64,000 bases of DNA from Alphaproteobacteria bacterium (GTDB lineage Bacteria > Pseudomonadota > Alphaproteobacteria > Bin95): positions 136,001 to 200,000 of the forward strand of contig CBDCQY010000002.1 of assembly GCA_965220855.1 (NCBI GenBank). Reading direction: 5' to 3'. Of the stretch, positions 3,644-29,233 are shown one piece after another. The stretch's first letter is position 1. Each line of letters starts with the position of its first letter. The translations under genes and the position numbers were made by a program. The notes beneath the pieces are model-generated. The model was not told where the DNA came from and did no database searches. It saw only the letters and a list, made by a program, of their open reading frames with translations.

Positions 3644-4414
3644 ATGGCCGGCTCGCCCGGCTATTTCCAGGGCCGCGTCATCGTCATCACCGGGGCGGCG
3701 AGCGGCATCGGCAAGGCGACGGCGGCAATCTTCGCGCGCGAGGGCGCGCATGTGGTCGCCTGCGACATCGACGCGGACGGCGGCGAACGCACCGTGAAGG
3801 CCATCCGGCAGACCGGCGGGCGGGCGCTCGCGGTCGCCACCGACGTCACGCGCCGCGAGGATGTCGAGGCGGCGGTCGCGGCGGCGCTGGCGGAGTTCGG
3901 GCGCATCGACTTCCTGTTCAACTGCGCCGGCGCGGCCGTGCGCCGCTCCGCCTTTCTCGACATCGACGACGAGCTCTGGCGGCGCAGCTGGCAAATCAAT
4001 GTCGATGGCCCCTTCTACGGCATGCAGGCCGTGCTGCCGCACATGCTGGAGCGCGGCAAGGGCGTGATCGTCAATGTCGCCTCCATGTCGCACAAGCGCG
4101 GCGGACCGGGCGCATCGGTGCATTACGCCTCCGCCAAGGGCGCGGTGCTGACCATGACCTTGGGCGTCGCGCGAGAGTTTGCGAGCCGGGGCATCCGCTG
4201 CCTCTCGATCTCGCCGGGGCCGGTGGAGACGCCTTTCCAGGCCGCGGCCGCCACCGCGCCGGAAACCATGGCGACCTTCCTTGCGGATGTGCCCATGGGT
4301 CGCTTCGGCAAGCCGGAGGAGATCGGCGAGCTGGTGCTGTTTCTCTGCTCCGACGCCTGCGAGTTCATGACCGCCGACACCGTCTATGTGAGCGGCGGCG
4401 GCGGCTGGCGCTGA
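3644..4414 (+). CDS. SDR family NAD(P)-dependent oxidoreductase
   Basis: TGAASGIGKA Rossmann motif. Catalytic S and Y(ASAKGAV) in canonical spacing. Confidence 0.9.
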   Translation: MAGSPGYFQGRVIVITGAASGIGKATAAIFAREGAHVVACDIDADGGERTVKAIRQTGGRALAVATDVTRREDVEAAVAAALAEFGRIDFLFNCAGAAVRRSAFLDIDDELWRRSWQINVDGPFYGMQAVLPHMLERGKGVIVNVASMSHKRGGPGASVHYASAKGAVLTMTLGVAREFASRGIRCLSISPGPVETPFQAAAATAPETMATFLADVPMGRFGKPEEIGELVLFLCSDACEFMTADTVYVSGGGGWR

Positions 4415-19413: not shown

Positions 19414-20460
19414 GTGCAGTTCGGCCTCTTTCTGGAGTTCGGCGTTCGCGACGGGCGCGCGCCGGCGGACATCTTCCGCGAGGGCTTCCGGCTGGTCGAT
19501 CTGGCCGAGGCGCTCGGGCTGCATTCGGTCTGGCTGGCGGAGTTCCACTTCATGCCGGACCGCTCGGTGCTCTCCTCGCCGATCGCGGTGGCGGCGGCGC
19601 TGGCGGCGCGCACCCGGCGGGTGCGCATCGGCATGGCGGTCTATGTGCTGCCGCTCGCCCATCCGCTGCGCATCGCGGAGGAGGTGGCGACGGTCGATCA
19701 GATCAGCGGCGGGCGCTTCGATTTCGGCGTCGGGCGCAGCGGCTTCGTGGCGCAATATCGCGGCTACGACATCGACTACGGCGAGAGCGAGGCGCGCTTC
19801 GACGAGGCGCTGGCGGTGCTGCGCGGCGCGTTCGCCGGCGGGCGCTTCTCCTTCGAGGGGCGCCATTACCGCGTGCGCGAGGCGGAGCTCATGCCGCCCG
19901 TGCACCAGAAGCCCCATCCGCCGATCTATATGGCGGCGACCTCGCCCGGCACTTTCGTCAAGGTCGGCGAGCTGGGGCTGCCGCTGTTCGTCGGCCTGCG
20001 CGGCGACGGGCTGGAGCCGCTGGCCGCCAATATCCGCATCTATCGCGAGGCCTGGACGGCGGCGGGCCATCCCGGCCGGCCGACCGTGCATCTGCGCGCG
20101 CCGGTCTATGCGGGCGCGACGCCGGAAGCCGCCGAGCGCGAGGCGCGGGAGACGCTGGTGCACTATTTCGACCGCCAGGCCAAGCTGGTGGCGAGCCAGG
20201 GCGCGCGGGAGGGCCTCGGGCGCGGCGGCGCCTCGGCGACGGCCGCGCGCCTCGCCGCGCTCACCTGGGAGGACATCCGCGCCCACTATGTCGCCGTCGG
20301 CTCTCCGACGCAGCTGGTGGACACGCTCGGGCGCTGGCGCGAGACGCTCGACATCGACGGCGTGATGATCGAGACCAACGCCGGCAACCTGCTGACCGAG
20401 GACCAGGCCGCCGACAGCGTGAGCCGCATCGCCGAGGAGGTCGTCCCGGCCCTCGGCTGA
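19414..20460 (+). CDS. LLM-class flavin-dependent oxidoreductase (luciferase-like monooxygenase family; could be F420- or FMN-dependent)
   Basis: MQFGLFLEFG...WLAEFHF...ISGGRFDFGVGRSGF is a typical bacterial luciferase-like TIM-barrel. GTG start. Confidence 0.85.
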   Translation: MQFGLFLEFGVRDGRAPADIFREGFRLVDLAEALGLHSVWLAEFHFMPDRSVLSSPIAVAAALAARTRRVRIGMAVYVLPLAHPLRIAEEVATVDQISGGRFDFGVGRSGFVAQYRGYDIDYGESEARFDEALAVLRGAFAGGRFSFEGRHYRVREAELMPPVHQKPHPPIYMAATSPGTFVKVGELGLPLFVGLRGDGLEPLAANIRIYREAWTAAGHPGRPTVHLRAPVYAGATPEAAEREARETLVHYFDRQAKLVASQGAREGLGRGGASATAARLAALTWEDIRAHYVAVGSPTQLVDTLGRWRETLDIDGVMIETNAGNLLTEDQAADSVSRIAEEVVPALG

Positions 20461-20479
20461 GTCCCGCTCAGGGAAGCGA

Positions 20480-20710
20480 TTACAGGATATGGGCGAGGAC
20501 GATCGCCTGGATTGCGACGAAGATGCCCAAGCCCCATTTGAGCGTCCGAAGCTCCCGCCGCAAATCAGCCAGCCCCTGCTGCACCCTGCCCAGTTCCGTC
20601 GCCGTCGCCAGCGTCGGCAGCACCGCCTGCGCGTCGGCGATTTCCGCCGACGTGATCAATGTCGCCAGGTCGCTGTTGGTAGCGAGCCGGTCGCTGTCGA
20701 TGAGCACCAC
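20480..20710 (-). CDS. Hypothetical small protein (coiled-coil region plus C-terminal TM helix)
   Basis: 76-aa ORF directly downstream of the giant fusion gene on the same strand. GC-rich third codon positions. GTG start. No recognisable family. Confidence 0.3.
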   Translation of the reverse strand: MVLIDSDRLATNSDLATLITSAEIADAQAVLPTLATATELGRVQQGLADLRRELRTLKWGLGIFVAIQAIVLAHIL

Positions 20711-20779
20711 TGCGGCATCGATCTTCCGGCCTTGTTCACATTCCGCTGCCCGGTGGCGGAATATGTGTCAGGCGGCGGC

Positions 20780-23700
20780 TCAGTCCGGCGAGAATAGCGA
20801 CGCGGCCAGGCGGAACGCGTTGCGGCCGATGCGCTCGCCGATCAGGCGGCCCGGAATGTCGTCCGCCGGCGGGTGAATGCCGCCCCAGATGCGCGACAGG
20901 CTGCACTGGTCGGCGGCGTCGCGATAGGTGGCCCATTGCAGGACCATCGGGCGCGAGGGGCCGCGCTCGAAGGTCAGGAAATCGTCCGCCGGAATGCGGA
21001 AGTCGCTCATGCCGCCGGGAAAGAAGGCGTCGCCGGTAAGCGCGGTCAGCACCTCCGCCGCCGCGCGCGAGAAGGTCGAGTGGCCGGAGACATAGCCTGC
21101 GAAAGGCGGCGTCACGAAAGACGGGCGCTGATAGGGCCACCAGTTCTCGGCCAGAATCCAGCCGACGCCGGCCACATCCCGGTCCGGGTCGCGCACGAAT
21201 TGCGGGCCGCGCCAGGCGCGCAGCTTGATCTTGCCGACATGATCGCCGTACTCGCCCGCCAGCGAGTCGCCGGCCTGGATGAGTTCGATCAGGCCCTCCT
21301 CCAGCGCGATGCCGTCGGCGGAGAAGGACGGCAGCGCCGGATCGCTGGACTGCCCGCGCTCCGCCATGACGCGCAGCGCCGAGATCGGCCGCACATAATC
21401 GTACCAGCCCTTGATGCTCCAGGCGGCGATGGCGGCGTCGTGCAGGGCGCCGCCAAGGGCGAAATAGGCCTTCGCGTCCCACTCCAGCGGATCGAGCGCC
21501 GGACCGCGGCCGGCAAAGCGCGGCTCGAACAGCGCATGGTCGCGAACGGCGTTCAGGATCAGGAACCAGTGGCCGGGCGGGGTTTCCGACTCCGGCCCGT
21601 CGGCCCAGAATTCGGCCAGCACGCGGGCATAGTCGCCCCGCGCCGCCAGCTGCGGCCGGTAGGGCCGGCCGGTGGCGGGATTGACCGCATGGCCCGGACC
21701 GAGCGCGCCATCGCGGTAGAACTCGGGATAGTCCCGGAAGGCGCGCGGCAGCGCCCCCAGATTGCCGATGCCCGACGGCGCGATGTCGAGTTGCACGCCA
21801 TCGTCGGGCGAGAGCTGCGCCGACCAGCGGACCACCAGTCCGAAGCCCCAGCGATAGTCCGCCGGAAACGGGCCGCGCAGCCCCGGCGGCGGCCCCGGAT
21901 CGTCATAGACGGTGAAGGAGGCTCCGTCCCGCTCGCGCACCCTCCGGTCCTCGGGAGCGAGCGCGAAGGGCGTGACGCGGCCCCATTCCGGGGTCACGAA
22001 CGGCGGCTCCTCGCCGACCGAAAACCCCGCCTGATCGACCGACTCGGTGAGCGCCAGCGGCTGCCAGCGATCCGGGTGCTCCATGGTGGGATTGCCGGGC
22101 TCCTCCGGCCAGAGCGACTCGTTGACCGGCTTGTAGGCGAGGCTGCGATAGTCCTCGGCCTCATTGGCGCCGTCCTCGAGGCCGCGCTCGATATAGAAGC
22201 GCCCGAGACAGGCGCCGAAGCGCGCGGCGGCGCTTCGCGCCTCGGTGTCATGGCCGAGCGCGGCCATCAGCGTGTCGGCGTTGCGCGCCGTGGCCAAGGC
22301 GCCGGGCGAGGTGCGGAAGCGGTGGCGGATCAGCCGCCAGGCGGCGTGGCTCACCGCCTCCTCCCGCAGCCGGCGAACATCGCCGCCGACCGGCGGCGTC
22401 CCGCAGGGCGCCTCCGCCTCGCCGAACCGCCACGGCCGCGCCGTGTCGGACCAGGCCGCCCAGGCGTCATACATGGCGGCGGAGAGATGGAAGAGATTGC
22501 GGGCGTGGACGGTCGGGCGGGCGAAATCGTCGCGAATCGCCTGGAGCAGCAGCTCGATCCAGCGCCGCGCCACCGAAACGCCCGCCGCCGGCCCCGGCAG
22601 GAAATGGGCAAACGCCATGGCCGGGCCGTCGGGCATGATGGCGACCGTTTCGGGCGCGCGGGCGTCGCGGAAGCGCACGCCGCCCTCGCCGGTCCAGTGG
22701 CTGAAGCGGTAATGTCCGCGCGCCGGCTCGGCCCGGATCGCGACCGCCTCTCCCGGCCGCTTCGCCCCGCTGCCCTGCCCGCGCGCCACGCTCAGCATGA
22801 CGCCCTCGGGCGGCGGGGCGCGAATCGTGAGCCGGCGGTCGAGCGCGACACGGGCCAGCCGTGTGGCCTGCCCGTCGGGCCAGCGCACCTCCACCGAGGC
22901 CGCCTCGTCCGCGCCCAGCCCGAAATGCAGCACCGGCGGCGCCTGCGAGAGATAGGAGCCGCCGAGGCGCATCTCCTGCAGCTGGCTGCCCGACGCCGAG
23001 CGCACCGTCACCCGCGCGCCGATGCCGGCCGGATTGTCGGGGCCGCCGGCGAGCGCGATCGCCAGCCAGCGATTGTCGTTGTCGAGCGCATTGGCGTAGA
23101 CGGTCGGCGCGGCGGCATGGTTGGCGATGAAGATATCGACCCGTCCGTCGCCGTCATGGTCGGCGCAGATCGCGCCCCGGCCCTGGCCGGTGTGGCGGAT
23201 GCCGAGTTCCGCCGCCCGCTCCGTAAAGCCGCCCGCGCCGTCGGACATGAACAGGCGCGAGGGGTCGATGGCGAATTCGCCCTCGCGTTCGGCGTCGCCG
23301 GGGCCGCTGTCGGCGAGGTCGTGGGGCCAGCCATTGGTCAGGAACAGGTCGGCATGGCCGTCATTGTCGAAATCCGCCCAGCAGGCGCCCCAGCCCCAGC
23401 CGCCGTCGCGCACCCCCGCCGGCCCGGTCGCATTCTCGAAGCGCCCGTCGCCGAGATTGCGATAGAGGCGGTTGCCGGTCGAGCCGAAGGAGGAGCTGCC
23501 GTCCGGGTCGTAGATGCTGGTGACGAACCAGTCGATATCGCCGTCCCGGTCATAGTCGCCGGCGGCCGCGCCCATGCCGTTCTCGTCGTCGATGACGGCG
23601 CCGCCAATGTCCCGGAAAGCCGCGCCGGCCTCGTTGCGCAGCACCTGGCTGGTGCCGAAATCGCCCGCCAGCAGCAGGTCCGGGTCGCCGTCGCCGTCGA

Positions 23701-24409
23701 TGTCGGAGAAGATCGGCGTGAAGGAGAATTCGTAACCCAGGATGCTGTCCGGCAGGATGCCCGGCCGGATCTCCAGCAGGTGGCTCGCATCCTCGAAACG
23801 CCCCTTGCCGTCATTGCGCCAGAGCGCGTGCGCCGGCGGGCGCTGGCCGCTCCACACGCGCATCCAGTGCCCGAAGACGAGATCGAGATCGCCGTCGCCG
23901 TCATAGTCGCCGGCCGCCAGCGAGGTCGCGTGCCGGTGGCGCGGAATGCCGAAGCGCTCGCCGGCGTCCTCGAAGCCCCCCTGCTCGTTCTGGCGGAAAA
24001 TCTGCACGCCGGCCTTCTGGATCGAGATGAATTCCGCCCGCCCGTCCCGGTCGAGATCGAGGAAATAGCCCCCGCCATCCATCGCGGCCGGGCGGATGCC
24101 CCGATTGTCGGCGAGGCGAAGAAAGCGCTCGCCGTTCCAGCCGAACAGCCTGCCGGTTTCGCCCGCGCCATGGGCGACATAGAGTTCGAGGCGCCCGTCC
24201 CTGTCGATATCGACCAGCGCCAGCCCGCCATCCTCCGTCCGGAAGTAAATGTCCCCGTCGATCGCGTCGTCGGCGGGCGGCGGCACATGGTAGGCAAGGC
24301 CGAGGCGTTCGGTGACATTCACGAAGGCGCCCTCGGCCGCCGCCCCGCCGGCGAGCAGGCAGGCGAGCGCCGCAAGGCGGAAGATCGAGGGAGGATTTGC
24401 CGTCAGCAT
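20780..24409 (-). CDS. Secreted multidomain protein: N-terminal CRTAC1-family region (FG-GAP/VCBS repeats + UnbV/ASPIC domain), central InlB-B-repeat-like domain, C-terminal vanadium-dependent haloperoxidase / PAP2-superfamily domain
   Basis: Signal peptide MLTANPPSIFRLAALACLLAGGAAAEGA. Repeated DxDGDGxxD FG-GAP motifs. NRWLAIALAGG...GIGARVTVRSASGSQLQEMRLGGSYLSQAPPVLHFGLG matches UnbV_ASPIC. The C-terminal K-x6-RP (KGWYDYVRP), SGH (YVSGHST) and SRxxxGxHxxxD (SRIWGGIHPPADD) motifs, plus the ARRWIELLLQAIRDD helical start, point to a V-haloperoxidase. Confidence 0.8.
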   Translation of the reverse strand: MLTANPPSIFRLAALACLLAGGAAAEGAFVNVTERLGLAYHVPPPADDAIDGDIYFRTEDGGLALVDIDRDGRLELYVAHGAGETGRLFGWNGERFLRLADNRGIRPAAMDGGGYFLDLDRDGRAEFISIQKAGVQIFRQNEQGGFEDAGERFGIPRHRHATSLAAGDYDGDGDLDLVFGHWMRVWSGQRPPAHALWRNDGKGRFEDASHLLEIRPGILPDSILGYEFSFTPIFSDIDGDGDPDLLLAGDFGTSQVLRNEAGAAFRDIGGAVIDDENGMGAAAGDYDRDGDIDWFVTSIYDPDGSSSFGSTGNRLYRNLGDGRFENATGPAGVRDGGWGWGACWADFDNDGHADLFLTNGWPHDLADSGPGDAEREGEFAIDPSRLFMSDGAGGFTERAAELGIRHTGQGRGAICADHDGDGRVDIFIANHAAAPTVYANALDNDNRWLAIALAGGPDNPAGIGARVTVRSASGSQLQEMRLGGSYLSQAPPVLHFGLGADEAASVEVRWPDGQATRLARVALDRRLTIRAPPPEGVMLSVARGQGSGAKRPGEAVAIRAEPARGHYRFSHWTGEGGVRFRDARAPETVAIMPDGPAMAFAHFLPGPAAGVSVARRWIELLLQAIRDDFARPTVHARNLFHLSAAMYDAWAAWSDTARPWRFGEAEAPCGTPPVGGDVRRLREEAVSHAAWRLIRHRFRTSPGALATARNADTLMAALGHDTEARSAAARFGACLGRFYIERGLEDGANEAEDYRSLAYKPVNESLWPEEPGNPTMEHPDRWQPLALTESVDQAGFSVGEEPPFVTPEWGRVTPFALAPEDRRVRERDGASFTVYDDPGPPPGLRGPFPADYRWGFGLVVRWSAQLSPDDGVQLDIAPSGIGNLGALPRAFRDYPEFYRDGALGPGHAVNPATGRPYRPQLAARGDYARVLAEFWADGPESETPPGHWFLILNAVRDHALFEPRFAGRGPALDPLEWDAKAYFALGGALHDAAIAAWSIKGWYDYVRPISALRVMAERGQSSDPALPSFSADGIALEEGLIELIQAGDSLAGEYGDHVGKIKLRAWRGPQFVRDPDRDVAGVGWILAENWWPYQRPSFVTPPFAGYVSGHSTFSRAAAEVLTALTGDAFFPGGMSDFRIPADDFLTFERGPSRPMVLQWATYRDAADQCSLSRIWGGIHPPADDIPGRLIGERIGRNAFRLAASLFSPD

Positions 24410-24511
24410 GCGCCGGCGGTAAGCCGCCCTGTCTCCCGGCAGTCATTCACCTTGCCGGCTTTATCGAGTGCCGCCCCGATCATTGCGGTAACGTCACCTT
24501 TCCGTTGACAC

Positions 24512-25147
24512 TCAACAAGGTTCGACGCTCAACTCCATGGTGCGTGAGAGGCAGAAGTCCAGATCGTCCGCATGGTAGGAGCGCACCTCCATTTCCACAT
24601 TGGCGCTCTCGCCGTCCCGCTCGCAGGACGCCTCGAAACGGCAACCGGGAGACTCGTGTTCGAACTCCCCGGCCGGCAACACCGAGACCGTCGTCAAGTC
24701 GCAGTAATCGTTCGCGGCGCTCGCCTCGAATCCCGTCCGGCATCTGGCTTCCGTGACGAAGGTAGACTTGTCGCAAATCGAATCGTTGATGTTGCAACAA
24801 TAGATGTCCGCAATCGTGTTGGAGGTCGGAAACACCGTTGTGTTTGTGGGCGTCGCTGCGGTCAGGGTCACTCTCTTGGCCGCGCTGCTTTCGTTTTCCA
24901 TGGTATACAGCAGTTCGACGGTCGCATAGTCGGTGCAGACATTCGTGACCGTCACAGTATGAGTTGTAGGCGGCGTGACCTCGCCGCCATTGAGAGTCTG
25001 CGCGACCGACAAGCAGCCAGCATTATCGTGGTGCGTCGCATTGGGGCATTGGGACGAATCTAGCGCCACGGCCGGATACGCCGCCAGTAGGCCCGCCAGC
25101 GCCGTCGTCGCGATGCGCGTCATTGCGCGCGCGATTGCAAATGTCAT
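24512..25147 (-). CDS. Secreted cysteine-rich protein of unknown function (12 Cys; founding copy of a two-member family in this window)
   Basis: The C-terminal 211 aa of ORF 24512..26485(-). Start MTFAIARAMTRIATTALAGLLAAYPAVALD (signal peptide) preceded by an AAGGGGG RBS. An alternative start lies 13 codons upstream. Its G+C is lower than the flanks. It is a clear paralog of the 60646..61218 protein. Confidence 0.65.
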   Translation of the reverse strand: MTFAIARAMTRIATTALAGLLAAYPAVALDSSQCPNATHHDNAGCLSVAQTLNGGEVTPPTTHTVTVTNVCTDYATVELLYTMENESSAAKRVTLTAATPTNTTVFPTSNTIADIYCCNINDSICDKSTFVTEARCRTGFEASAANDYCDLTTVSVLPAGEFEHESPGCRFEASCERDGESANVEMEVRSYHADDLDFCLSRTMELSVEPC

Positions 25148-25189
25148 GATTGCCCCCTTCACGGCTGTTGAATCGGCCTTTCCCATGAA

Positions 25190-25230
25190 CACGATGATGC
25201 CAGCAATCGCCGGACGCGATGTCAAGCGCT
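25190..25230 (-). promoter_or_regulatory. Putative sigma70-type promoter for the Cys-rich protein gene (perfect -35 TTGACA on the minus strand at about 25221-25226, then a weak -10)
   Basis: Minus-strand reading: agcgcTTGACAtcgcgtccggcgattgcTGGCATCAT, about 50 nt upstream of the RBS/ATG at 25147. It lies in the 207-bp divergent intergenic region shared with the tolC operon. Confidence 0.25.
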
Positions 25231-25354
25231 CATGCGCCCTTATGCCGGTCGCACGGGATTTGCGCGTCGCTCGCGCCGTAGCGCGCCAAGGTCTCGCGTC
25301 GGCGCGCGCATCGGTGCTAGGCTGGCCGGAGGCGGGGTTGAGAGACATGAGGGG

Positions 25355-26752
25355 ATGCGGAACGCCGGCGCGCTGATTCTGGGCTTGATGCTGGGCGCGG
25401 TCGCCGCGCCGGCTGCTGGGCAGACGTCGCCCGACTCCGGTCCGGCGGAGATGGTGCTGACGCTGGACGAGACGATTCGGCTGGCGCTGCAGAACAGCCG
25501 CGCCCTCGTCGGCGCGCGGCTGTCGCGGGCCGAGCAGAAATTCTCGCTCGACATCGCCGAGGACCGCTACCGGCCGCAAGCCAGCATCAGCGCCTCCGCC
25601 AACGCCGCCAACCATGGCGACGAGACCGCCGAGGCCTCTTTCGGCCCCACCCTCAGGGTTCCGACCGGCGGCAATTTCAGCTTGAGCCTGGACAAGCCGC
25701 TCGCCGGCGAGCGGGACCGGTCGAGCGCCTACCGGCTGAGCTTCTCGCAACCGCTGCTGCGGGGCTTCGGCCCCGATATCGACACCGCGCCGCTGCGCAA
25801 GGCGCGGATGCAGGAGCGCATCAACGCCAGCTCCTATCGCAACCGCATCGCCGGCGTGGTGATCTCGGTCATCGGCGCCTACCGGTCGGTCGTCCGGGCG
25901 CAGCGCGCCATCACGATCAGTCGCGGCTCGCTGGAGCGCGCCGCGCGGCAGCTGGAGATCAACCGGGCGCTGATTCGCGCCGGGCGCCTGGCGGCGCGAG
26001 AAATCGTGCAGAGCGAGGCGGAGGTCGCCAACCGCGAACTGTCGCTGATCGAAACCGAGAACAGCCTGCAATCGGCCAGATCCTCCCTCATCAACATTCT
26101 CGACATCGACACGCCGACCCGCATCCGCCTGGAGGAGGCGCTCGACGTGGAGCCGCTGCGCCCCGATCTGGAGGAGAGCATCGAGACGGCCTTCGCGCGG
26201 CGCACCGACCATCTGCAGGCGGTGCTCGGCGTCGATCGCGCCCGGATCGACCTCGGCGTCGCGCGGAACGCCCGGCTCTGGGACCTCCGGCTGAACGCCG
26301 GCATGTCGGGCCGCAGCGACGAGGCGCAGATCGACTATCGCGCCGGCCTGAACCTGACCATCCCGCTCACCGACCGGTCGCCCGACCTCGGCCTGCTGCG
26401 GGCGCAGAACGATCTGCGCCGCGCCGAGATGGCGCTCCAGGAGTCGCGCCAGGCGATTCGGATCGAGGTGCGCCAGGCGGTGCACGATGTCGAGGTGGGG
26501 CTGAGGAAGATCGAGCTGGCCCGAAAGTCCCGCGAGCTCGCGGAGCAGAAGCTCGACATCGAGCAGAAGAAGCTGGCCCAGGGGCTGACCTCGACATTCC
26601 GGCTCACACAGGTGGAAGACGATCTCGTTCGGGCGCAGAATGGTGAACTGGACTCCATTCTGTCCTATCTTAACGCCCTGACCTCGCTGGACAGGACGCT
26701 TGGCACCACGCTCGACCGCTGGGGCGTCGATGTCGAGAGGAGCGGGCAGTGA
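25355..26752 (+). CDS. TolC-family outer-membrane efflux/secretion channel
   Basis: Start at M42 of ORF 25232..26752 (MRNAGALILGLMLGAVAAPAAGQ signal peptide). Two-repeat OEP architecture (TIRLALQNSRAL..., ...LYRAQNDLRRAE...). GAGGGG RBS. Confidence 0.85.
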   Translation: MRNAGALILGLMLGAVAAPAAGQTSPDSGPAEMVLTLDETIRLALQNSRALVGARLSRAEQKFSLDIAEDRYRPQASISASANAANHGDETAEASFGPTLRVPTGGNFSLSLDKPLAGERDRSSAYRLSFSQPLLRGFGPDIDTAPLRKARMQERINASSYRNRIAGVVISVIGAYRSVVRAQRAITISRGSLERAARQLEINRALIRAGRLAAREIVQSEAEVANRELSLIETENSLQSARSSLINILDIDTPTRIRLEEALDVEPLRPDLEESIETAFARRTDHLQAVLGVDRARIDLGVARNARLWDLRLNAGMSGRSDEAQIDYRAGLNLTIPLTDRSPDLGLLRAQNDLRRAEMALQESRQAIRIEVRQAVHDVEVGLRKIELARKSRELAEQKLDIEQKKLAQGLTSTFRLTQVEDDLVRAQNGELDSILSYLNALTSLDRTLGTTLDRWGVDVERSGQ

Positions 26753-28524
26753 CCGACGCAGACGCGCCTTTCGACCGCAATATCCTCGACAACCTCCTGG
26801 ACGGGGTGGTGATCGTCGGGCTGGACGGCGTGCTGCGCACCGTCAATCCGGCGGCCGCCGCCATGTTCGGGCTGGAGCCGGAAGCCGTCGCCGGCAGGAC
26901 CTTCGTCGAGGTCTTCATCGCCATCGAGGGCTTCGACGAATTCACCCAGACGGTGCTGGACGCGGTCGCCGACCGCACCGAGGAGGGCCGGCGGGTCATC
27001 GGCGTGCGGCTCGGCGACGAGGACCGGTCGCTCACCGTGACCATCTCCTACATGGAAGCTCCCGACGGCGCCGCCAGCGTCATCGTGGTGCTGAGCGACA
27101 TCACCGAGATTCGCGAGCTGCGCGAGAGCCAGCTGCGCATGGCCCAGGCGATCGAGGAGCAGAACGCCGAACTGCAGCAGGCCTATCGCGACGTCGAGAA
27201 GACCAATGAGGAGCTGACCTCGACCCTGAAGAAAGTGCAGCTCGCGCGCGTGCTGGCGACGGTGGTGGTGATCGTGCTGTTTCTCGGCGTCGGCGGCTGG
27301 GGCTGGGGCGTATCGGGCCTCTTCGACGATTCGGACGATCCCGACCCCCTGCCGGTGGCGGAGGCCGGCGTTCCCGGCGAAGTGCGCACCGTGACGGTGC
27401 GTCCGCGCGCGTTCGACGCCACCGTTTCGCTGATCGGCCGTCTGGCGCCCTGGCGCCAGGTGCAGGTGGTCGCGCCCATCGCCGGCCATGTGCGCGAGGT
27501 GCTGTTCGACTATGGGCAGCAGGTCGCCGAGGGGGACCGGCTGGTGACGCTCGACACGGCGGCGCTCCGGCTCGAATATCAGCAAAGCGAGGTCGATTAT
27601 CGGAAGGCCCAGAACGCGCTCCGCGATATCGACAATTGGGAGAACGGCGCCGAGGTGTCCAATGCGCTGCGCTCCTACACCAAGGCCAAGATGGCGCTCG
27701 ACCAGCAGGACCACAAGCTCAGGACCTCCGCCTTTCTGCTGAAGGAGGGTCTGATCTCGGTCGAGGAGCACGAGGATCTGAAGCTCCGGCACGAGAACCA
27801 GCTGCTCGACTTCGAGGCCATCGAGCAGGATCTGGCGGCGGCTCGCGCCAGGGGCGGCGCCGAGGCGCGGCGGGTGGCGCAGCTGGAGTACGACAAGGCG
27901 GAGAACCGGTTCCGGACCCTGGAGCGCCAGCTGAAGATCGACAAGGTGACGGCGCCGATCGGCGGCGTCGCCCGGCCGCCGGGCCGCCTCGCCGCCGGGC
28001 TGGCCCCCGGCCAGGAGCTCAAGCAGGGCGACGCGCTGCTGCGGATCGCCGACTTCACCCGCATGTCGGTGGAGGCCCAGGTCGATGAGGTGGAGGTCTC
28101 GACCATCCAGGTCGGCCAGCCGGTGACCGTCACCGGCGACGCCTTTCCCGGCTTGCAGATTCCCGGCGCGATCAGCCAGGTCTCCGCCCAGGCGGTCAAG
28201 GCGTCCGGCCGGGGGCCGGCGCGCTTTGCGATCGTCGCCACGCTCGAACCGCTCGAGGACGAGCACAAGCGGCTGGTGCGCGCCGGCATGTCGGCGCGGA
28301 TGCGCATCGTGACCTACAGCAATCCCTCCGCCCTGATGGTGCCGCTCGACGCCGTGGAGGGCGGCGGCGATGGCAAGGCGTGGCTCCGCGTGCGCGACGC
28401 CGCCACCGGCGAGATCGAGGAGCGGGAGGTCCGGGTCGGGCTGACCACGCAGCGCTCCGTGGAGGTGACCGGCGGCCTCGAAAGCGGCGCCGAGGTGGTG
28501 CTGCCGTCGTCGGCGGACGGATAG
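26749..28524 (+). CDS. HlyD-family periplasmic adaptor (membrane fusion protein) with an N-terminal cytoplasmic PAS domain
   Basis: Residues about 10-130 form a PAS fold (ILDNLLDGVVIVGLDGVLRTVNPAAAAMFGL...), followed by a coiled coil, a TM helix (VLATVVVIVLFLGVGGWGWGV), then MFP lipoyl/beta-barrel segments (VTAPIGGV..., QVGQPVTVTGDAFPG...). GTGA overlap with tolC. Confidence 0.8.
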   Translation: MTDADAPFDRNILDNLLDGVVIVGLDGVLRTVNPAAAAMFGLEPEAVAGRTFVEVFIAIEGFDEFTQTVLDAVADRTEEGRRVIGVRLGDEDRSLTVTISYMEAPDGAASVIVVLSDITEIRELRESQLRMAQAIEEQNAELQQAYRDVEKTNEELTSTLKKVQLARVLATVVVIVLFLGVGGWGWGVSGLFDDSDDPDPLPVAEAGVPGEVRTVTVRPRAFDATVSLIGRLAPWRQVQVVAPIAGHVREVLFDYGQQVAEGDRLVTLDTAALRLEYQQSEVDYRKAQNALRDIDNWENGAEVSNALRSYTKAKMALDQQDHKLRTSAFLLKEGLISVEEHEDLKLRHENQLLDFEAIEQDLAAARARGGAEARRVAQLEYDKAENRFRTLERQLKIDKVTAPIGGVARPPGRLAAGLAPGQELKQGDALLRIADFTRMSVEAQVDEVEVSTIQVGQPVTVTGDAFPGLQIPGAISQVSAQAVKASGRGPARFAIVATLEPLEDEHKRLVRAGMSARMRIVTYSNPSALMVPLDAVEGGGDGKAWLRVRDAATGEIEEREVRVGLTTQRSVEVTGGLESGAEVVLPSSADG

Positions 28525-28531
28525 GCGGGCC

Positions 28532-29215
28532 ATGCTGCAACTGGTCGGTATCGAGAAGTCCTTCATGCTGGGCTCGGTGGAGATCAAGGTCCTGCGGGGC
28601 GTCGATCTCGAAGTGGCGGAAGGCGACTTCCTGTCGATCATGGGGCCGTCCGGCAGCGGCAAGTCCACGCTGATGAACATTATCGGGCTGCTCGGCCGCC
28701 CGACCGCCGGCGCCTATCTGCTGCATGGCAGCGATGTGTGGTCGATGAACGACGATCAGCTGTCGGCCTTTCGCAACCGCCAGATCGGCTTCGTGTTCCA
28801 GTCCTTCAACCTGATGCCCTATCTGACGGCGCTGGAGAATGTCGGCCTGTCGCTGGTCTATCGGGGCGTCGGCGCCCGCGAGGCGAAGCGCCGGTCGATG
28901 GCCATGCTGGAAAAGGTCGGCATGGGAGACCGGACCGACCATCTGCCGGGCCAGCTATCGGGCGGCCAGAAGCAGCGGGTGGCGATCGCGCGGGCGTTGG
29001 TGGGGGAGCCGGCGGTGATTCTCGCCGACGAGCCGACCGGCGCGCTCGACACCGCCACGGCGGGCGAGGTGATGGAGCTGCTGATCCGGCTGAATGAGGA
29101 AGAGCGCATCACCATCGTCATCATCACGCACGATTCGGATGTGGCGGCGCAATGCCGGCGCCGGACGCGCATCAATGACGGCATGCTGGTCGAACCGCCG
29201 CCGCGCGCGGCCTGA
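28532..29215 (+). CDS. ABC transporter ATP-binding protein, MacB/LolD (ABC-type antimicrobial peptide) family
   Basis: GPSGSGKST Walker [16 protein letters not shown] signature, [11 protein letters not shown] Walker B. Confidence 0.9.
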
Positions 29216-29233
29216 GGCGGGGCGGGCGGCGAG

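Follow-up and report, generated by a model that had tools for sequence, protein, structure and literature searches.

The DNA analyzed here is a stretch of 64,000 nucleotides (the window, whose numbering is used throughout unless a locus is named) from an Alphaproteobacteria bacterium of GTDB lineage Bin95 (assembly GCA_965220855.1, contig CBDCQY010000002.1, positions 136,001 to 200,000 of the forward strand). It contains a four-gene operon for a tripartite exporter in which the second gene (26749..28524, +) encodes a 591-aa periplasmic adaptor, or membrane-fusion protein (MFP), with an N-terminal cytoplasmic sensor module that includes a PAS domain. We refer to this protein as PAS-MFP. The order outer-membrane factor (OEP), PAS-MFP, ATP-binding cassette (ABC) ATPase and MacB-type permease is found at all 28 related loci drawn from a genome collection, and the same four-gene order is seen in independent public gene calls.

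The gene is one uninterrupted open reading frame (ORF). Its GTG start and the stop codon of the preceding OEP gene overlap by 4 nt (GTGA), and its GC content at third codon positions (GC3) is 0.92 throughout, which is normal for genes of a window with ~70% GC. Public gene calls on independent contigs give the same 591-aa product (P0001, L029), and more than 110 full-length homologues (580-615 aa) with 38-95% identity can be aligned with it end to end. The original prediction had raised the worry that two ORFs might be separated by an unnoticed frameshift, and the intact frame and the end-to-end homologues dispose of it. Split or frameshifted copies at other loci (L037, L038) would fit an annotation or assembly artefact in which a sequencing error joined two genes or the start codon was chosen wrongly, but a split-off MFP half would have no membrane anchor or signal peptide, and with the evidence just given such an artefact retains only a vanishing chance. 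At L037 (5001-6766) the gene is divided into a 190-aa PAS ORF and a 403-aa MFP ORF that overlap by 19 nt, and the operon remnant at L038 (3847-5513) consists only of a truncated OEP gene and a 170-aa PAS fragment. Short PAS-only matches were considered as a natural two-protein version of the adaptor and set aside; those checked are frameshifted or decayed operon copies.

Operon partners, adaptor body and membrane topology

The partners of a MacAB-TolC-type pump are all present. The first gene of the operon (25355..26752, +) encodes a TolC-like OEP of 465 aa (Pfam OEP, E=2.8e-38), which also matches the TolC family model TIGR01844 weakly and lies directly upstream of the MFP in 28 of 28 loci. 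Translation probably starts at 25355 and not at 25232, where the longest ORF begins; the start at 25355 is followed by the signal peptide MRNAGALILGLMLGAVAAPAAG and agrees with a public call of 465 aa. The upstream extension (25232..25354, +) comprises 41 Arg-rich codons, which the public gene call does not include. The third gene (28532..29215, +) encodes the ABC ATPase as a separate polypeptide of 227 aa (ABC_tran, E=2e-32) that resembles MacB, LolD and DarD, matches the NCBIfam models for all three and has intact Walker A, LSGGQ and Walker B (ILADE) motifs. The fourth (29234..30436, +) encodes a MacB-type (type VII ABC) permease of 400 aa with a periplasmic core domain (MacB_PCD, E=1.5e-33; FtsX, E=9e-21), which aligns to residues 258-647 of E. 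coli MacB.

The periplasmic body of PAS-MFP occupies residues 214-585 (27388..28503, +) and has the lipoyl, alpha-hairpin, beta-barrel and membrane-proximal domains of a membrane-fusion protein. An AlphaFold2 (AF2) model of the full protein, built from a 75-sequence family alignment, has a mean predicted local distance difference test score (pLDDT) of 87.5, and pLDDT reaches at least 95 for residues 214-585. The body exceeds the profile cutoffs of TIGR01730 RND_mfp (121.8 vs 94.9), HlyD_3 (54.9 vs 22.2, residues 400-498) and HlyD_D23 (50.3 vs 30, residues 236-486). Its best Foldseek match is MacA in the MacAB-TolC complex (9qgy_G, E=1.9e-25), then 5nik_D, 4dk0 and 3fpp, and after MacA come AcrA, MexA and EmrA, with body matches spanning E values from 1e-25 to 1e-17. 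The standard lipoyl/beta-barrel MFP body that had been read from the letters is borne out by these profiles and by the MacA-like fold. The long alpha-hairpin (residues 271-395; 27559-27933, +) is defined by the AF2 model and by the conservation of its tip, where G334 is invariant and the family consensus is FLLxxG(L/I)(I/V). A pattern search of the window protein for the hairpin-tip motif R-x3-L-x6-S gave no match.

The only Kyte-Doolittle hydrophobic peak in the protein lies at residues 163-187 and includes VLATVVVIVLFLGVGGWGWG. It marks a single transmembrane (TM) segment at about residues 163/166-187 (27244..27309, +) with an N-in orientation, and across 114 homologues Lys and Arg number 2.4 in the eight residues before this segment and 0.29 after it. 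No N-terminal signal peptide is found in PAS-MFP. Because there is one TM segment, a positive-inside bias and no signal peptide, the PAS domain and coiled coil are predicted to be cytoplasmic and the adaptor body periplasmic. This lone peak and its N-in bias agree with the TM segment and cytoplasmic N terminus proposed at the outset. The TM segment is joined to the body by an acidic, poorly conserved tether (residues 188-213; 27310..27387, +) that is disordered by its pLDDT; in the AF2 model disorder extends over residues 182-213, and pLDDT falls below 50 at 180-200.

The PAS domain and its coiled-coil linker

The PAS domain spans residues 7-118 (26767..27102, +), and its assignment draws on Pfam, NCBIfam, AF2, Foldseek and conservation. 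Pfam PAS_4 matches residues 13-122 (E=5e-11, 43.2 bits vs a cutoff of 23.1), the PAS (37.6 vs 22.6), PAS_9 (32.5 vs 27) and PAS_8 models are likewise past their cutoffs, and so is NCBIfam TIGR00229 sensory_box (41.8 vs 22.9). AF2 predicts a canonical PAS fold at residues 7-117 (pLDDT ~90), in which strands 19-24, 28-32, 80-88, 91-104 and 107-117 form a five-stranded antiparallel sheet with flanking helices. A second AF2 model, of residues 1-160, again gives a PAS domain followed by a helix (pLDDT 87.8). In Foldseek the N-terminal model matches the WalK PAS-cyt domain, FixL, short LOV proteins and photoactive yellow protein (PYP), all with E values of ~1e-7. The PAS fold that the original prediction placed at the N terminus is borne out by all of these lines.

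Conserved positions are spread over the whole domain (L13, D18, G19, V20, G27, N33, A35, G49, E54, F56, the acidic surface motif E60-G61-F-D-E-F65, R81, R93, S100, V114 and S116), and G19, N33, D117 and L142 are invariant in the family. The domain ends in a D-I-T-E motif, as signalling PAS domains typically do, in which D117 is invariant and I118, T119 and E120 are at least 90% conserved in the 114 homologues. His, Cys and Trp are absent from the PAS domain of the window protein and from all columns that are at least 90% identical in those homologues, and the domain has none of the signatures that were looked for (heme His, LOV Cys, PYP Cys, FAD Trp/Asn). Heme, LOV and PYP chemistry were rejected as candidates on this ground. 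Because the domain lacks conserved His, Cys and Trp, redox or light sensing of the heme, LOV or PYP type is unlikely. The original prediction had named a cytoplasmic ligand, redox state or light as the possible signal; the redox and light parts of that list have become improbable, and the direct response to a cytoplasmic signal is supported, still as an inference.

A cytoplasmic coiled-coil helix (residues 119-165; 27103..27243, +) leads from the PAS domain to the membrane. In the full AF2 model the coiled coil and the TM segment form a single continuous helix from 119 to 181, and a helix follows the PAS domain in both models. The hydrophobic periodicity of residues 119-162 has a power of 52.8 at 3.5 residues (vs 1.1, 0.5 and 18.4 at the non-helical periods 3.0, 4.0 and 2.5), and the prediction of a coiled coil before the TM segment is confirmed by this period and by the AF2 helix. 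The a positions are 121, 135, 142, 149, 156 and 163, and the d positions 124, 131, 145 and 159. Two conserved core positions are polar (E128 and Q138); a DIT motif and polar residues in the core characterise the switching helices described for PAS and S-helix proteins. A juxtamembrane motif near the end of the coiled coil (ELQxAYRxxExxNxxLxxxLKK, ~141-162) is common to adaptors with a PAS domain and to variants, described below, that carry a GAF or cyclic-nucleotide-binding (cNMP) domain.

The length of this linker changes in steps of seven. Segment lengths were read from hmmalign output for the 150 cluster representatives of the family search described below. The interval D117..K161 measures 45 residues in 77 clusters, 38 in 37, 31 in two and 47 in two, so that heptad steps (45/38/31) hold in 116 of 118 clusters. 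The interval D117..Y146 measures 30 residues in 78 clusters, 23 in 37, 16 in one and 32 in one, and Y146..K161 is 16 residues long in 135 of 136 clusters, GAF and cNMP variants included. In the alignment the linker deletions appear as clean blocks of seven or 14 residues. Control segments vary smoothly (the PAS core from 92 to 119 residues and the periplasmic tether from 44 to 72). At least three length classes an exact heptad apart, set against smoothly varying controls, are a strong signature of what would be register-dependent coupling. The linker helix would be a signalling helix because its length changes only by sevens while the controls vary smoothly, and the DIT motif and the heptad periodicity are likewise those of such a helix.

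Family, sensor exchange and the proposed mechanism

A word-indexed search with PAS-MFP gave 148 matches; 114 of the 120 that were listed have lengths of 575-620 aa, and PAS and MFP Pfam domains are present in nearly all of these. When 1.84 billion cluster representatives (50% identity) were searched exhaustively with HMMER, 6,503 clusters reached an E value of 1e-30 or better, and the 150 best matches, which are used here, all score above 374 bits. Of these 150, 113 align to the family profile from its N-terminal PAS region on; one of them (P0165) is a multi-PAS protein of 4,799 aa and no MFP, so the full PAS-MFP architecture is present in at least 112 clusters at 50% identity. The architecture had been called uncommon, which holds for the literature and does not hold for metagenomes, where the family is large. 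A tblastn search of 72,556 plasmids with the N-terminal 270 aa gave no match. Mean column identity in the 114 homologues is 0.63 for the PAS domain, 0.71 for the coiled coil, 0.63 for the TM segment, 0.61 for the adaptor body and 0.44 for the tether. To judge by these columns, purifying selection acts on the N-terminal module as strongly as on the adaptor body.

The taxon labels of the metagenome-assembled genomes (MAGs) conflict with the sequences, and no claim of cross-phylum spread can be made for PAS-MFP. Two contigs (L003 and L004), one labelled Gammaproteobacteria and one Gemmatimonadetes, are 99.7% identical over 5.9 kb. Two others (L006 and L021), one labelled Binatia and one Paracoccaceae, share a module of ~9 kb with ~94% nucleotide identity and have unrelated upstream flanks. 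Such conflicts reflect errors of binning or labelling, or else a module that was transferred recently.

Some twenty among the 150 best matches align only from the coiled coil on and have a different N-terminal region of 120-220 aa. Pfam identifies this region as GAF in nine of ten such variants and as cNMP_binding in the tenth, and a local phmmer classification of all 150 counts 18 GAF and one cNMP_binding. Two proteins that are counted among the 113 (P0219 and P0229) are GAF+PAS tandems, a third protein (P0250) carries a different PAS domain, and in P0281 the PAS and coil module is fused to a STAS domain. The operon around the GAF variant P0245 has the identical order of OEP, MFP, ABC ATPase and permease genes. 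The cNMP variant P0221 adjoins OEP, ABC and permease genes, and its phosphate-binding cassette (FGE...PRSA) is intact. Overall, two of the three sensor variants with readable surroundings lie in an operon of the PAS-MFP type. The swapping and stacking of canonical input domains on a constant chassis is a pattern of signalling proteins and supports, at the level of sequence, a sensory role.

Directly upstream of the cNMP-variant adaptor is a gene for an Lnt-like apolipoprotein N-acyltransferase (LNT_N + CN_hydrolase; L031:890-2572, +). This layout recalls the Aat dispersin exporter, which combines a MacB-like pump with an Lnt-like acyltransferase.

The interpretation toward which we lean, with a little more confidence than doubt, is that the adaptor of this MacAB-TolC-like exporter doubles as an inside-out one-component transmembrane signal transducer. 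We infer that the cytoplasmic PAS domain binds a small-molecule or metabolic signal, probably without a cofactor and not in the manner of heme or LOV domains. The DIT motif and a parallel coiled-coil signalling helix would couple it rigidly to the adaptor's own TM helix, and binding of the ligand would rotate this helix, move it as a piston or change its pairing. The signal, which would run outward, could act in either of two ways. It might alter the packing of the juxtamembrane and TM helices against the ABC ATPase and permease and so gate the ATPase, or it might alter the assembly of the adaptor hexamer and its engagement of the OEP. In either case export would be switched post-translationally by the internal state of the cell. 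The original suggestion, a direct response of the pump to a signal in the cytoplasm, remains inferential, but a sensor role is better supported than before because the module is conserved, its domains are exchanged, the DIT(E) motif is present and the linker is heptad-quantised.

Several observations weigh against this interpretation. Heme, LOV, PYP and Zn-PAS structures match the PAS model about equally well in Foldseek, so the fold points to no ligand class, and a search of the PDB finds no match with the single N-terminal sequence and only generic PAS domains with a profile. A contact of the PAS domain or coiled coil with the ATPase is hypothetical. One GAF variant is a stand-alone gene with no ABC transporter beside it, and because there are sensor-less relatives that keep the juxtamembrane motif (P0225, P0252), the chassis can presumably work without a sensor. 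Finally, the clusters are kin by descent, so the 118 length counts are not independent events, and heptad conservation is equally expected of a purely structural oligomerisation stalk.

This last point leads to an explanation that we regard as unlikely, in which the PAS domain and coiled coil form a constitutive oligomerisation or anchoring module, or a tether for the separate ATPase, with no ligand switching. PAS, GAF and cNMP domains all dimerise and join coiled coils, linkers that preserve heptads are expected of any coiled coil, and the PAS domain has no conserved cofactor residues. The ATPase is a separate polypeptide, unlike that of the fused E. coli MacB, and extra tethering could help it. 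However, three unrelated ligand-binding folds are exchanged here and GAF+PAS tandems occur as in bona fide signalling proteins; the retained phosphate-binding cassette of the cNMP variant would be needless for a mere scaffold; the DIT motif, E128 and Q138 are typical of switching helices; and the existence of sensor-less relatives argues that the module is not needed for assembly.

A signal might also travel from outside to inside, such that the adaptor reports pump load or the state of the envelope and the PAS domain serves as output to a cytoplasmic effector. The helix could carry a signal either way, no enzymatic output would be needed if the PAS domain binds a partner, and the fusion of the PAS module to STAS, a partner-switching domain, would suit such a role. 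PAS, GAF and cNMP domains are overwhelmingly input modules, though, and no conserved gene for a cytoplasmic partner accompanies the operon in the 28 loci, which makes this direction very improbable.

Tripartite pumps are normally seen as transcriptionally regulated and their adaptors as passive or mechanically coupled connectors. If the adaptor is instead a transducer, exchangeable sensors on a register-preserving helix would point to a machine spanning the envelope that second messengers or metabolites control directly and post-translationally, and to a signal that crosses the inner membrane from inside to outside, an unusual direction. The ligand of the cNMP-binding homologue is predictable, which makes the idea directly testable, and if it is true these adaptors would offer a natural design for ligand-switchable export systems.

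Neighbouring genes and candidate cargo

A divergently oriented gene that is also present in a public gene call (24512..25147, -) encodes a secreted protein of 211 aa with 12 Cys and no Pfam family, a tentative candidate for cargo of the pump. Local GC content around it is 0.63, compared with ~0.70. A paralogue with 30% identity and likewise no Pfam family is encoded at 60646..61218 (+). At the closest related locus (L001, adaptor 95% identical) the homologue of the 211-aa gene (3767-4399, -) is a pseudogene that has lost its start codon and contains three in-frame stops.

Two groups of small secreted proteins recur near related operons. Calx-beta proteins of ~190 aa with signal peptides flank the operon at 20 of the 28 related loci (L005, L006, L008-L016, L018, L020-L024 and L026-L028; for example, L005:3650-4216, -, and L006:12562-13188, -), and this association extends to clusters with only ~45% identity between their adaptors. 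Downstream of the permease gene, 10-11 loci carry tandem genes for Cys-rich secreted proteins of 280-308 aa. The two groups have in common the N-terminal leader MRQDSNGKTARTAWR..ALAGVVL. The Cys-rich pair of the window and the tandem Cys-rich family have the motifs C..A[WF]..S.A...C and, at the C terminus, L.NC.G.LKTS.C in common. Of the 540 ORFs in the window, the pair takes the first two ranks in a search with a hidden Markov model of the tandem family, though with weak scores (E=0.002 and 0.012), and the hhalign probability is only 17%; kinship between the pair and the tandem family is suggestive only.

E. coli MacAB exports the enterotoxin STII from the periplasm, and MacB-type transporters in general take their substrates from the periplasm and not from the cytoplasm. 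The cargo of the present pump may be small Sec-exported Cys-rich or Calx-beta proteins that are taken from the periplasm. Many of the related loci belong to MAGs with names suggestive of sponge symbionts (Poriferihabitaceae, Porisulfidus; bins SB06xx, CAR1, RHO3 and jk18). Porisulfidus and Spongiihabitans are described as known sponge symbionts (PMC12988363), and Calx-beta proteins are reportedly enriched in sponge symbionts (PMC11706023). A broader proposal, possible although we hold it with considerable doubt, is that these adaptors define an unrecognised class of ligand-gated tripartite exporters in which interchangeable sensors (PAS, GAF, cNMP-binding or GAF+PAS) act on the TM helix by way of the heptad-registered helix, switch the ATPase cycle or the duct engagement of a MacB-type pump and thereby time the release, in host-associated bacteria, of small Sec-exported Calx-beta or Cys-rich host-interaction proteins whose genes adjoin the operon. 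Should these small secreted neighbours be the cargo, release of symbiont effectors would be tied to physiological state.

The nature of the cargo also bears on a different role for the PAS domain, which might bind a cytoplasmic protein (cargo, chaperone or regulator) and so trigger recruitment of the outer-membrane factor. The N-terminal cytoplasmic domain of HlyD binds substrate and senses it directly (PMC13328181), and the acidic motif E60-G-F-D-E-F65, which is conserved on the surface, could form an interface with a protein. Against this stand the MacB-type transporter (MacB_PCD + FtsX), whose class handles periplasmic substrates, the Sec signal peptides of the candidate neighbouring cargo, a score below the cutoff of the HlyD-family model TIGR01843 (47 vs 208.65 bits) and the replacement of the PAS domain by a cNMP-binding domain, which argues for small-molecule input. 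We consider this protein-triggered alternative improbable.

Two further genes adjoin the operon. An ORF of 302 aa convergent on the permease gene (30441..31349, -) has a coding-type GC3 of 0.91 and no Pfam match, and its only homologue in the related loci is a 43-aa remnant in L001. On the other side, 20780..24409 (-) encodes a protein of 1209 aa with FG-GAP_3 repeats, UnbV_ASPIC, Flg_new_2, DUF6851 and a weak VCPO_2nd match; similar FG-GAP_3 proteins adjoin the pump operon in L001 (82% identity) and L037. Rfam at the gathering threshold gave no match over 20000-34000, and promoter and terminator scans gave none over the operon. The remainder of the window is ordinary chromosome, with genes for enolase, rpsD, purL/purQ and an M32 carboxypeptidase.

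Comparison with known systems

Such proteins already carry the automated annotation "PAS domain S-box protein", so PAS-MFP sequences are known and their biology is uncharacterised. We found no description of a PAS domain with an MFP, MacB or HlyD in the literature, which included part of a 2021 review in Chemical Reviews; PAS domains are mentioned neither in the covered part of that review nor in a 2026 review (PMC13328181). The nearest description is a 2015 report of GAF-HlyD-biotin_lipoyl proteins, for which a regulatory or sensory role was suggested (PMC4452313). Those proteins resemble PAS-MFP in the fusion of a cytoplasmic sensor to an MFP, a likeness by description only. They differ in that the sensor is GAF, the setting is a Peptidase_M50 / SecA_DEAD module and no linker analysis was given.

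The closest structural relative is MacA of E. coli (PDB 5NIK, 9QGY and 3FPP), which has the same four-domain periplasmic body and a single N-terminal TM anchor and works with an ABC ATPase, a TolC-like duct and a permease of the MacB type that contains a periplasmic core domain. A cytoplasmic domain is lacking in MacA (PMC13328181), whereas PAS-MFP has ~165 cytoplasmic residues, and the ATPase and permease are separate genes here, unlike those of E. coli MacAB. The MacA equivalog model NF008606 falls far below its cutoff (58.1 vs 342 bits), and identity to MacA is ~20%. On these grounds PAS-MFP is MacA-like in fold and partners and not a MacA orthologue.

HlyD of type I secretion resembles PAS-MFP in having an N-terminal cytoplasmic segment before the TM helix that senses substrate, and it provides a precedent, by analogy, for the inside-out signalling that we propose through the adaptor (PMC13328181). 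The small segment of HlyD contains no PAS domain, and its partner is HlyB-type; PAS-MFP, as noted above, falls short of the TIGR01843 cutoff.

The split exporters DevBCA and DarCDE likewise combine separate genes for an ATPase and a MacB-like permease with an MFP, and the ABC ATPase of the window scores well against DarD and DevA. The adaptor falls below the cutoffs of the corresponding MFP models for DevB and DarC (TIGR02971, 38.9 vs 129; NF038010, 41.5 vs 450), and no sensor domain has been described for those adaptors. By these model scores PAS-MFP belongs to none of the HlyD, DevB and DarC families. The cytoplasmic module itself is most like those of PAS-histidine kinases and short LOV proteins, in which a PAS domain is followed by DIT(E) and then by a coiled coil with lengths in heptad steps, and the top fold matches of the N-terminal model include WalK PAS-cyt, FixL and PpSB1-LOV with C-terminal helices. 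PAS-MFP differs from these proteins in that it has no flavin, heme or Cys signature and in that its output would be a TM helix and a periplasmic adaptor in place of a dimerization and histidine phosphotransfer (DHp) and kinase module.

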